Shown: positions 1,053 through 6,841, counted from the stretch's first letter. The stretch is DNA of 6,841 bases from a virus (IMGVR_UViG_3300011982_000005:1-6841), one strand, 5' to 3'. Program-made: numbers and translations. Notes: a model not told the origin generated them from the letters alone.

Positions 1053-1246
1053 TACTCAAAATCAAGATTTAATTTAATAAAATCAACAACAGACTCAAAG
1101 GTAGAAAAACAAAAATAACGACCATCGGAAAACTCAACACGATAAATAGTTATATCAAAATTACCATGCTTAGAAATACGATGTTCCTTAAATAAAGAAA
1201 ATTCAGTATTCTCAATCAAAGGAAATTTAGTCTTAATACAATTCAT
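1052..1246 (-). CDS. Hypothetical 64-aa protein between the peptidase and Rep genes
   Basis: ORF from the track, with ATG at 1246-1244. It overlaps the peptidase 3' end by 14 nt, and its TAA stop overlaps the Rep ATG (TAATG). A purine-rich AAGAAAGG lies about 9 nt upstream. I recognise no motif (MNCIKTKFPLIENTEFSLFKEHRISKHGNFDITIYRVEFSDGRYFCFSTFESVVDFIKLNLDFE). Confidence 0.6.
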   Translation of the reverse strand: MNCIKTKFPLIENTEFSLFKEHRISKHGNFDITIYRVEFSDGRYFCFSTFESVVDFIKLNLDFE

Positions 1247-1667
1247 AACGGCTACCTTTCTTAATAAGATATTGTGATTTATGGGTAAAACGATTAATAG
1301 AAATATGAAGAAAAGTCGGATAAATAATAACCTGGCCTACAAGAGAATTAAGAGAATCTGTAGAACGAATAACTTTAGCAAGGCGCACAGGAGTATAACC
1401 AATTACACGAACATCAGCAGCAAGACCTTTAAGGTGGTCAGAATTAGGAACACCACCAACATGAGCATTAACAATTCTATTCCGAAAACCAGAGTTAATA
1501 ACAACAGGAGCACATACACGACAACGAAGTAACTCTAAAAAATCACATAAAATACGAAGATTAGATATCTCACTTTCAGATGGTGAATTATAACGACCAT
1601 AACGTTTAACATTACACATTTCAAATAATGTGAAGTGAGTTGATAATTGTATATCGGAATCAATCAT
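1233..1667 (-). CDS. Zn-dependent peptidoglycan peptidase, M15 (Peptidase_M15_3 / LAS-type D-Ala-D-Ala carboxypeptidase-like); putative endolysin
   Basis: 144 aa starting at ATG 1667-1665. It carries the family signature INSGFRNRIVNAHVGGVPNSDHLKGLAADV, that is SGxR..N...GG..S.H..G.A.D with H78-x6-D85, plus a distal FLHIS (H121). The N-terminal FTLFEM segment is typical of this family. There is no signal peptide or TM segment. Confidence 0.85.
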   Translation of the reverse strand: MIDSDIQLSTHFTLFEMCNVKRYGRYNSPSESEISNLRILCDFLELLRCRVCAPVVINSGFRNRIVNAHVGGVPNSDHLKGLAADVRVIGYTPVRLAKVIRSTDSLNSLVGQVIIYPTFLHISINRFTHKSQYLIKKGSRYELY

Positions 1668-1800
1668 AAAATATTAAAATATAAAGTTTGATTTCGCAAA
1701 TATAAACAATTAAATATAATAAGTAATATGATAATCAAATTTTTTAAGGTATTTTAATAAAATCGATGTTTTAATATGTTTGGAGCCCTGTCAGTTTTAC
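1668..1800 (-). promoter_or_regulatory. Very AT-rich upstream region of the peptidase-Rep-capsid gene string; candidate promoter with a Bacteroidota-type -7 box
   Basis: My hand count gives about 18 percent GC over 1671-1790. The minus strand reads TATATTTG (plus 1697-1704), matching the Bacteroides -7 consensus TAnnTTTG, 29 nt upstream of the peptidase ATG. No well-spaced -33 TTTG was found. TTTTAATA occurs twice (1752-1759 and 1769-1776), flanking an ATCGAT palindrome. A (TA)n run lies at 1801-1809. Confidence 0.35.
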
Positions 1801-2017
1801 TATATATATCAAGGGGGAAAGTACGCAGCACGGAGGGCGTGCGCCACTTACGTGGAAACTGAAAAGTAAATAATTTTAAGCTTTTAGGGGGGTCGTATCG
1901 CAAGCTTCACTATCCGCCAAAGGCGAGAAAAATAGGTATGCATTTCGAGTGCGTTCCGTTTCCTGTAAGCGGAAACTACACGCCCGACCGGCTTTGTGTT
2001 CGCAAGCTCACCTAATA
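1801..2017 (-). other. GC-rich, hairpin-dense non-coding block of unknown function (candidate complementary-strand origin, ssDNA initiation signal or structured RNA)
   Basis: Hand count gives 100 G+C in 200 nt (1811-2010), against very AT-rich flanks. Stem-loops (plus coordinates): 1828-1842 (GCACG/CGTGC); 1844-1855 (CCAC/GTGG, with GUAA loop on the minus strand); 1878-1907 (AAGCTT/AAGCTT); 1915-1925 (CGCC/GGCG); 1951-1983 (GCGT+GTTTCC / GGAAAC+ACGC); 1978-1999 (ACAC+GCC / GGC+GTGT). Repeated 9-mers: TCGCAAGCT at 1898-1906 and 2000-2008, and GYGGAAACT at 1852-1860 and 1969-1977. Confidence 0.6.
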
Positions 2018-6006: not shown

Positions 6007-6841
6007 TTAATCCGTTAAACTATCTAATACATGAGCATTTGCACGCTTACTTTTAGTATGCAATTTCAAATCATCTTTAATCTTATCAGAATACTTTTTA
6101 AAGTGAGGTTGATTAAACTCATAAAAATTCGATAAACGCTCATCATTACGAATTCCACGAATGTAAAACCGACCTAAATTAAGATTATAACTTTTAGCAA
6201 TGTCATACATCCAAGGATATTTATCAATAATATCACAATAATATTTTGGCAAGCGCATTAAAAAAGAATAATCAATGCAGGATTGAATATCAAACTCAGG
6301 ATAATCAACAGCAACAGGATAAATATCATCAGCAGGCCATGTCAAATTACGATATAAATTATCCATATACTGATATTGCTGAAATAACTGAAATTGCGCA
6401 TACTGATAATGAAACCAATCTAACATCTCCATATAATGTAATGGATGAGTGTCAAAATGTAAACACCATCTTAGACAAGCGCGAGCAGCTGCAATATCGG
6501 CGGAATGAAACCAAGAATCTTCGGCATTATAACTATCTCCTAATTCATTAATAGCACGCGTAGGGTATAACTTCGTATTCTTTTTATACCATTCCAGGCA
6601 AGCGAGAGAAGCAGAAGCATCTACTTTTTCGATTCCATCGACTTTTTTATATTTGATAAATCGCGTATATAGACGTAATTTATCCCAATCAGATAACGTG
6701 CTATACTCAAAGCACTTTGGGAAATATCGACATACAACACTCGGGGGAATTGGGTAAACAAGAGTTTGTTTTCCTTGCTTTGTAATTGTCGTATCACTTC
6801 GAAATATAGTTCGTTCAAGGTATAATCCTTGTACTTTTTCA
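6007..6841 (-). CDS. VP4: Replication initiation protein, C-terminal part (codons about 318-595). 6743-6841 duplicates 1-99.
   Basis: The same frame as the 1-1052 piece continues through the junction (codon 351 uses bases 2, 1 and 6742). The reading is ...QTLVYPIPPSVVCRYFPKCFEYSTLSDWDKLRLYTRFIKYKKVDGIEKVDASASLACLEWYKKNTKLYPTRAINELGDSYNAEDSWFHSADIAAARACLRWCLHFDTHPLHYMEMLDWF..., without any stop, down to TAA 6009-6007. The track's 141-aa ORF (6007-6432) is only the tail from the first internal ATG. Confidence 0.9.
   Translation of the reverse strand, partial: EKVQGLYLERTIFRSDTTITKQGKQTLVYPIPPSVVCRYFPKCFEYSTLSDWDKLRLYTRFIKYKKVDGIEKVDASASLACLEWYKKNTKLYPTRAINELGDSYNAEDSWFHSADIAAARACLRWCLHFDTHPLHYMEMLDWFHYQYAQFQLFQQYQYMDNLYRNLTWPADDIYPVAVDYPEFDIQSCIDYSFLMRLPKYYCDIIDKYPWMYDIAKSYNLNLGRFYIRGIRNDERLSNFYEFNQPHFKKYSDKIKDDLKLHTKSKRANAHVLDSLTD
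6743..6841. repeat. Terminal direct repeat, copy 2 (identical to 1-99)
   Basis: Base-for-base identity with 1-99. The offset of 6742 nt defines the genome length. Confidence 0.95.

Follow-up and report, generated by a model that had tools for sequence, protein, structure and literature searches.

Results

Organization of the genome

The window, by which is meant the whole stretch of DNA that was analysed, is 6,841 nucleotides long. Its first 99 positions are repeated exactly at 6743-6841, which means that it holds a complete circular microvirus genome of 6,742 nt. Every gene of the window is carried by the minus strand (Table 1), and the presence on the circle of a Phage_F capsid protein, a pilot protein and a Rep protein bears out the microvirus context in which the initial annotation had placed the peptidase gene.

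The 64-aa ORF that follows the peptidase gene shares 14 nt with it at the peptidase stop, and the stop codon of the ORF overlaps the start codon of Rep (TAATG). In divergent relatives this ORF is retained with an amino acid identity of 44-51% and a dN/dS ratio of 0.13-0.67, and family searches, with Pfam, PHROG and NCBIfam among them, gave zero matches for its product.

The genome is a recombinant. The half that contains the peptidase and Rep genes is 90.6% identical to one prophage (L003), while the half that contains the VP1 and VP2 genes is 92.4% identical to another (L005), the other half of which is only about 71% identical.

Table 1. Features of the circular genome, with positions counted from the first nucleotide of the window
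Feature	Position	Strand	Size or sequence	Basis or remark
M15 peptidase ORF	1667-1233	minus	144 aa	ATG start
64-aa ORF	1246-1052	minus	64 aa	conserved; function not assigned by family
Rep	1052-1 and 6742-6007	minus	595 aa	PF23343; spans the circle junction
Major capsid protein VP1	5978-3900	minus		Phage_F, PHROG 514
Acidic ORF	3881-3441	minus	146 aa
Pilot protein	3538-2297	minus		PHROG match
Region with small ORFs only			~630 nt	last in coding-strand order
Smalltalk/DUF6486 peptide	2175-2264	minus	29 aa, single TM	PF20096, E 3.3e-10; NCBIfam NF033879, E 2.3e-8
40-aa TM ORF after smalltalk	2043-2165	minus	40 aa	KD19 2.51
Intrinsic-terminator-like hairpin	2019-2050	minus	9-bp stem, UUCG loop, T-run	end of the 40-aa ORF
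attP, dif-like	1710-1740	minus	GATTATCATA-TTACTT-ATTATAT	L003/L005 junctions compared with the L055 empty site
Putative -7 promoter box TAnnTTTG, Bacteroidota-type	1697-1704	minus	TATATTTG	29 nt upstream of the peptidase ATG
Putative 70-aa membrane protein, Rep frame +1	623-835	minus	70 aa	stop map, TM hydropathy
201-aa ORF, Rep frame +1	1-484 and 6621-6742	minus	201 aa	net charge +26

Family, residues and fold of the peptidase

The initial annotation had read the ORF at 1233-1667 as the gene of an M15 peptidase. The coordinates that it gave are right, the ORF lying on the minus strand and encoding 144 aa, and the residues that it had singled out are all in place (S59-G60-F61-R62, N67, G71-G72, S76-D77-H78, D85 and H121). 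The family assignment holds up as well: the match to the Pfam profile PF08291, Peptidase_M15_3, has a score of 58 bits (E 1.2e-15) at a curated cut-off of 23.2 bits, and extends over profile positions 24-107 of 108. The peptidase further matches PHROG 894, 'endolysin', with an E value of 5.5e-23, and PDB entry 1LBU with E values of 6.7e-5 from the single sequence and 3.2e-11 from a profile. By these matches, the peptidase is shown to belong to MEROPS M15A/Pfam Peptidase_M15_3.

The motif SxHxxGxAxD takes the form S76-D77-H78-L79-K80-G81-L82-A83-A84-D85 in the peptidase, R62 lies within S59-G60-F61-R62, and the (W/F)xH motif, defined for assayed M15A endolysins (PMC13461873), corresponds to F119-L120-H121. 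In the sequence alignment with 1LBU, residues H78, D85 and R62 fall on H154, D161 and R138. The profile alignment ends at residue 105, and the equivalence of H121 with H197 rests on the (W/F)xH motif together with the published comparison of LysPM1. From these correspondences we infer that the zinc is held by H78, D85 and H121, the same three ligands that had been proposed in the initial annotation.

Among 251 family members outside the clade of the peptidase, residues S59, R62, N67, S76, H78 and D85 are invariant, and all of them are present here. G81 is kept in 250 of the 251, while E16 and H121, both of which are also present here, are kept in 94% and 96%, and the position of residue 119 is occupied by W or F in 82%. 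The aspartate of the common FDQ motif is found in 78% of the relatives, and is replaced by Gly111 in all 15 clade members. Two residues before H121, at the position of H195 in 1LBU, the peptidase has F119, and two residues after it Ser123, where the Proteus phage endolysin LysPM1 has an Asp that has been proposed as proton shuttle (PMC13461873). A guess at the general base, made from conservation, would be E16.

A structure predicted with AlphaFold (AF2) from 20 homologues has a pLDDT of 92.7 and a pTM of 0.88. When this model is compared with the PDB by Foldseek, 1LBU is the top match (E 1e-4, about 24% identity over 103 aligned columns), followed by Hedgehog-N, Ply500, LysB4, VanXYc, LdcB and VanY. 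Among the viral models in BFVD there are 58 matches at E<=1e-3, and where these have names, they are mostly called 'Peptidase M15A' or 'Peptidase'; the M15A matches reach TM scores of 0.7-0.76, and four of them come from marine microviruses. The modelled peptidase is in this way shown to have the LAS/Hedgehog-DD-peptidase fold.

The N-terminus of the peptidase (MIDSDIQLSTHFTLFEMCNVKRYGR) is polar, and its first 25 residues have a mean hydropathy of -0.22. The sole segment with a KD19 value above 1.6, residues 39-57, contains four charged residues and forms a helix-strand of the core in the model. There is, as judged by hydropathy, neither a signal peptide nor a SAR helix in the peptidase.

At the other end, residues 126-144 (1233-1292, minus strand) form a tail, NRFxHKSQYLIKKGSRYxxY, which is specific to the clade and absent from the wider family. 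The tail is almost invariant among sequences that are only 59-70% identical overall; docking, membrane binding and wall binding are possibilities for its role.

Distribution and descent of the peptidase gene

The peptidase gene is under purifying selection, with dN/dS ratios of 0.10-0.14 in relation to close relatives and of 0.22-0.48 at near-saturating distances. The close clade, with identities of 59-97%, occurs solely on microvirus-sized contigs or in microvirus prophages, and a pattern scan of 185,579 GTDB species genomes for the clade-specific motifs of the peptidase found none. When 1.84 billion cluster representatives are searched with HMMER, 6,439 relatives are found at E<=1e-3, and only three of these, with identities of 71, 61 and 51%, at E<=1e-30. 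The remaining ones are at most about 50% identical to the peptidase and, where they are named, come mostly from Proteobacteria.

The initial annotation had suggested a Bacteroidota donor of the gene. Such a donor was not found by the GTDB pattern scan, by a word-indexed profile search or by the exhaustive HMMER search. Identities fall to about 35-50% outside the clade, alike for other GenBank microviruses and for endolysins from tailed phages that infect Stenotrophomonas and Burkholderia, and for this reason no donor can be named.

Within the microviruses, there are two IMG/VR contigs, L089 and L094, where the peptidase is 67-69% identical to that of the window at the same time as VP1 is only 35-36% identical, and in L094 the Rep protein only 32%. 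In these identities, an exchange of the peptidase gene between microviruses is visible.

Host and integration

Peptidases that are 97% and 62% identical to that of the window sit on metagenome contigs of 22-30 kb, which have chromosomal genes on either side of an entire microvirus. Relatives occur in the oral metagenome samples ERZ28634133 and ERZ27319982. The sequences that flank the prophage match Segatella (Prevotella) salivae DSM 15606 at 97-98% identity, and in the genome of this strain (L055) the site is empty. From alignment of attL, attR, attP and attB, with the use of loci L003, L005, L006 and L055, the junctions put attP at 1736-1714 on the minus strand (GATTATCATATTACTTATTATAT) and give attB as ATTTATCATAATACTTATTATATAAATA, with the dif-like layout of two arms separated by a spacer. 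The attP motif keeps its position in most relatives, where it usually precedes the peptidase start codon by about 55-70 nt.

It has been proposed by Krupovic and Forterre that microviruses of Bacteroidetes integrate in dependence on XerC/D (PMC3091885), and the junctions agree with this proposal. The virus has the properties of the Alpavirinae-type temperate microviruses, in that it carries no integrase gene, has a dif-like attP and has relatives that are prophages in Bacteroidota. By comparison of these loci, the virus is shown to be a temperate, integrase-free, Alpavirinae-like microvirus with S. salivae as host. The host is therefore Gram-negative.

Signals for transcription and replication

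Of 14 related upstream regions, 11 have the box TATATTTG at the corresponding position, and a twelfth has TATGTTTG. We take the box to be a promoter element on account of the published Bacteroides consensus, and its position, 29 nt upstream of the peptidase gene, makes it plausible that, as the initial annotation claimed, this gene is the first one behind the promoter region. A scan for sigma-70 promoters gave nothing above the expectation from shuffled sequence, which is what one expects when the host belongs to Bacteroidota. Because the -7 box lies upstream of the peptidase gene and a clean terminator lies after the 40-aa ORF, the arrangement suggests a single genome-length transcription unit, which would begin with the peptidase gene and end at the hairpin at 2019-2050. 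A sub-threshold match of this hairpin to SorY, the only Rfam match in the window, was taken as chance.

Between the peptidase gene and the smalltalk ORF there is a conserved, GC-richer non-coding block at about 1790-1880. It contains the phiX174-like origin motif CTTGATAT at 1813-1794 on the minus strand; the motif CCCTTGATATATATAGTAAAAC (1794-1813, minus strand) resembles the phiX174 nick site CTTG/ATA, and the block is conserved also in contig L125. The motif at 1794-1813 is possibly the origin at which Rep nicks. The DNA fold of the block, with z = -1.8, is not compelling.

Small membrane proteins downstream of the pilot gene

The smalltalk peptide (KD19 2.05) is encoded directly after the pilot gene. 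Its dN/dS ratio is 0.02-0.23, the protein is identical even at a pS of 0.43, and across the clade its sequence varies far less than that of the peptidase. It is present in 12 of 14 near-complete VP1-related contigs that are M15-positive, and in one of the 49 that are M15-negative, so that 48 of the 63 near-complete related microvirus contigs lack both the peptidase and smalltalk. Where the two occur together, the attP region always separates them, with smalltalk 0.5-0.9 kb upstream of the peptidase gene, and the pair persists where the identity of VP1 is 35-36% and that of Rep 32%. This co-occurrence could come from shared descent within one VP1 clade.

A degenerate DNA pattern for smalltalk retrieved only the same clade and four chance matches, and tblastn searches against phages retrieved only the known relative, or nothing. 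Two weak smalltalk-like ORFs in Prevotella chromosomes adjoin a gene that by eye appears to encode an HU-like DNA-binding protein, and not a hydrolase.

The 40-aa TM ORF that follows smalltalk is less conserved; it is identical in L001, while L005 and L006 have only a 38-aa analogue in the same position. Family searches gave no likeness to known holins for smalltalk, for the 40-aa ORF or for the 70-aa protein considered below.

Genes overprinted in Rep

In phiX174, gene E is overprinted in gene D, and gene B lies within gene A. A similar layering appears in Rep, when its two alternative frames are mapped for stop codons in 11 genomes. Frame +1 is free from stops at Rep codons ~72-142 in nearly all of them, and at codons ~189-390 in nine, the other two, L002 and L095, each having a single stop there. 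Over the remainder of Rep, a stop interrupts frame +1 about every 25 codons, and stops abound in frame +2. The synonymous divergence of Rep is lower in both stretches for almost every pair of genomes that excludes L090. Between the window and L003, for example, it is 0.04 and 0.12 in the two stretches vs 0.30 in the rest of Rep, and between L092 and L096 it is 0.09 and 0.29 vs 0.55.

In nine genomes the ORF in the former stretch is exactly 70 aa long and starts from an ATG that occupies an equivalent place, Rep codon 72 (73 in L090). The protein would have a C-terminal TM helix with KD19 2.5-2.9 and a net charge of +4 to +7, and it is a candidate holin or E-like lysis protein. Of 11 related genomes, 10 keep the ORF in the latter stretch open over 183-213 aa, and an early stop in L095 leaves ~194 aa. 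Its counterparts are very basic, with net charges of +14 to +27, and by analogy with B in A of phiX174 a role in DNA binding or as a scaffold is conceivable for the product. Family searches gave zero matches for either product, and the 70-aa protein showed no likeness to known single-gene lysis proteins. Neither overprinted ORF is annotated in the GenBank relatives.

Discussion

Proposed function of the peptidase

Taken together, the family, the residues and the host make it probable that the peptidase is a soluble, zinc-dependent peptidoglycan peptidase, and most likely the endolysin of a temperate microvirus of S. salivae. The proposed course of events is as follows. Transcription probably starts at the Bacteroidota-type promoter beside attP, with the peptidase gene first, and ends after the 40-aa ORF. 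The peptidase would then accumulate in the cytoplasm, and reach the wall only once the inner membrane has been made permeable by a small membrane protein; both the accumulation and the need for a membrane lesion are proposed because the peptidase has no signal or SAR sequence. Candidates for the permeabilising protein would be smalltalk, the 40-aa TM ORF and the 70-aa protein overprinted in Rep. Walls of the Prevotella type contain meso-diaminopimelate. In the wall, R62, the equivalent of R138 in 1LBU, would bind the free D-carboxylate, and the peptidase is predicted to cut bonds in the stem peptides, most plausibly the D-Ala-mDAP cross-links, because the carboxylate-binding arginine is conserved.

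One may go further and suppose that the M15 peptidase and smalltalk, possibly with the 70-aa protein, make up a minimal holin-endolysin cassette that is mobile between divergent microviruses. We regard this as a tentative idea, and rather doubtful. If it were true, no smaller holin-like protein than smalltalk would be known, and this would be the first function for a family of small proteins that is annotated by NCBI across Bacteroidota genomes.

Alternative functions

Lysis could instead be driven by an E-like small membrane protein, either the 70-aa protein or smalltalk, with the peptidase as a dispensable accessory that speeds the breakdown of the wall. This would account for the conserved 70-aa TM protein, whose overlap with Rep recalls that of E with D, and for the 48 contigs that lack peptidase and smalltalk, which imply that related viruses lyse without it; microvirus subgroups that have no peptidase have also been described by Zhang et al. 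(PMC11499846). However, the peptidase gene is under purifying selection and is kept across recombinant backgrounds, and the 70-aa protein has no similarity to the known single-gene lysis proteins, so that this explanation is unlikely. Another possibility is that the peptidase is a virion-associated entry enzyme, which opens the wall locally for the tube of pilot protein when DNA is delivered. M15A domains are indeed fused to baseplate-hub (Gp5-like) and tail proteins of tailed phages, an unrelated hydrolase, Gp7 of the microvirus Ebor, is present in virions in trace amounts (PMC11980548), and the near-invariant C-terminal tail could serve for docking. The gene lies beside Rep, however, and outside the VP1-VP3-VP2 structural block; a T=1 capsid offers little space for a passenger of 16 kDa, and most microviruses manage without such an enzyme. 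An entry role is, on balance, quite improbable.

It is, finally, conceivable that the peptidase has a non-lytic role, e.g., as a D,D-carboxypeptidase that remodels the wall of the lysogen, or that it is catalytically impaired. The structural prototype 1LBU is a carboxypeptidase, the promoter is intact in the prophage, and the clade has lost the common FDQ aspartate, but all residues that are universally conserved in the family are kept and the close single-domain homologues of tailed phages are proven lysins, which makes a role of this kind very improbable. An endolysin function is the reading that we prefer.

Implications

By itself, the presence of the peptidase changes little, because it is one more example of a pattern that has been documented since 2012. 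What is gained is that an oral microvirus lineage is tied to a named and cultivable host, Segatella salivae, and that a single-domain lysin of 144 aa, if such it is, would be an active-site variant with Gly in place of the FDQ Asp. More is to be gained from the candidate export partners and from the two genes overprinted in Rep, which are missed by current annotation.

Comparison with known systems

An M15 peptidase in a microvirus is already known, and a near-identical public copy is already annotated. This copy, the 'peptidase M15' WMC01438.1 of Microvirus D_HF4_111 from human saliva (OR148991.1), has 97% amino acid identity to the peptidase of the window, and its genome is about 96% identical to the window over the whole length, its genes being in the same order. 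The record carries no annotation of smalltalk, of the 40-aa ORF or of the two ORFs overprinted in Rep. Roux et al. described in 2012 M15_3 peptidases in 11 human-associated microviruses, which they took to be horizontally acquired and probable endolysins (PMC3394797). These peptidases, from Alpavirinae and Gokushovirinae, belong to the same Pfam family, and often adjoin a small ORF without assigned function (PMC3394797). With these two precedents, the guess of the initial annotation that the domain was probably not unprecedented proves right, and indeed cautious. Peptidases have since been described as recurrent accessory lysis genes of microviruses, one of which moves between microvirus families (Kirchberger et al. 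2022, PMC9239249), and M15 peptidases are carried also by isolated marine and rhizobial microviruses. To the other microvirus peptidases in GenBank, the oral clade has about 35-40% identity, which is no closer than to the endolysins of tailed phages.

The temperate Rhodobacter microvirus Ebor is like the virus of the window in that it has an accessory wall hydrolase of 146 aa (Gp7), a dif-type attP and a small membrane protein (PMC11980548). Gp7 is, to the knowledge of its authors, the first experimentally verified peptidoglycan hydrolase of an ssDNA phage (PMC11980548), and it was the only assayed microvirus wall hydrolase found in the literature that was searched. Unlike the M15 peptidases it is a T7-lysozyme-type amidase (1ARO, E 3.6e-18) with zero profile similarity to them, and as an amidase it was ruled out as a precedent for M15 activity.

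The Streptomyces zinc D,D-peptidase 1LBU shares with the peptidase its fold, the zinc triad and the arginine that binds substrate. It differs in that it has an N-terminal peptidoglycan-binding domain, and an HxH motif in which H195 is the base, the residue that is F119 here.

The closest parallels with assayed function are two endolysins of dsDNA phages, of which the single-domain M15A enzyme of Burkholderia phage ST79 degrades Gram-negative peptidoglycan (PMC5025407), as does the Zn-dependent LysPM1, which has the same motifs (PMC13461873). They are encoded in dsDNA genomes, where holin and spanin genes adjoin them, and the residue two positions past the third ligand in LysPM1 is an Asp in place of Ser123. 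Like the peptidase of the window, both are about 115-145 aa long and consist of a single Peptidase_M15_3 domain with SxHxxGxAxD and (W/F)xH motifs, both have the arginine equivalent to R138, and both have 1LBU as their best structural match. It is by analogy with ST79 and LysPM1, both of which come from holin-containing cassettes, that we infer an endolysin role for the peptidase of the S. salivae microvirus.
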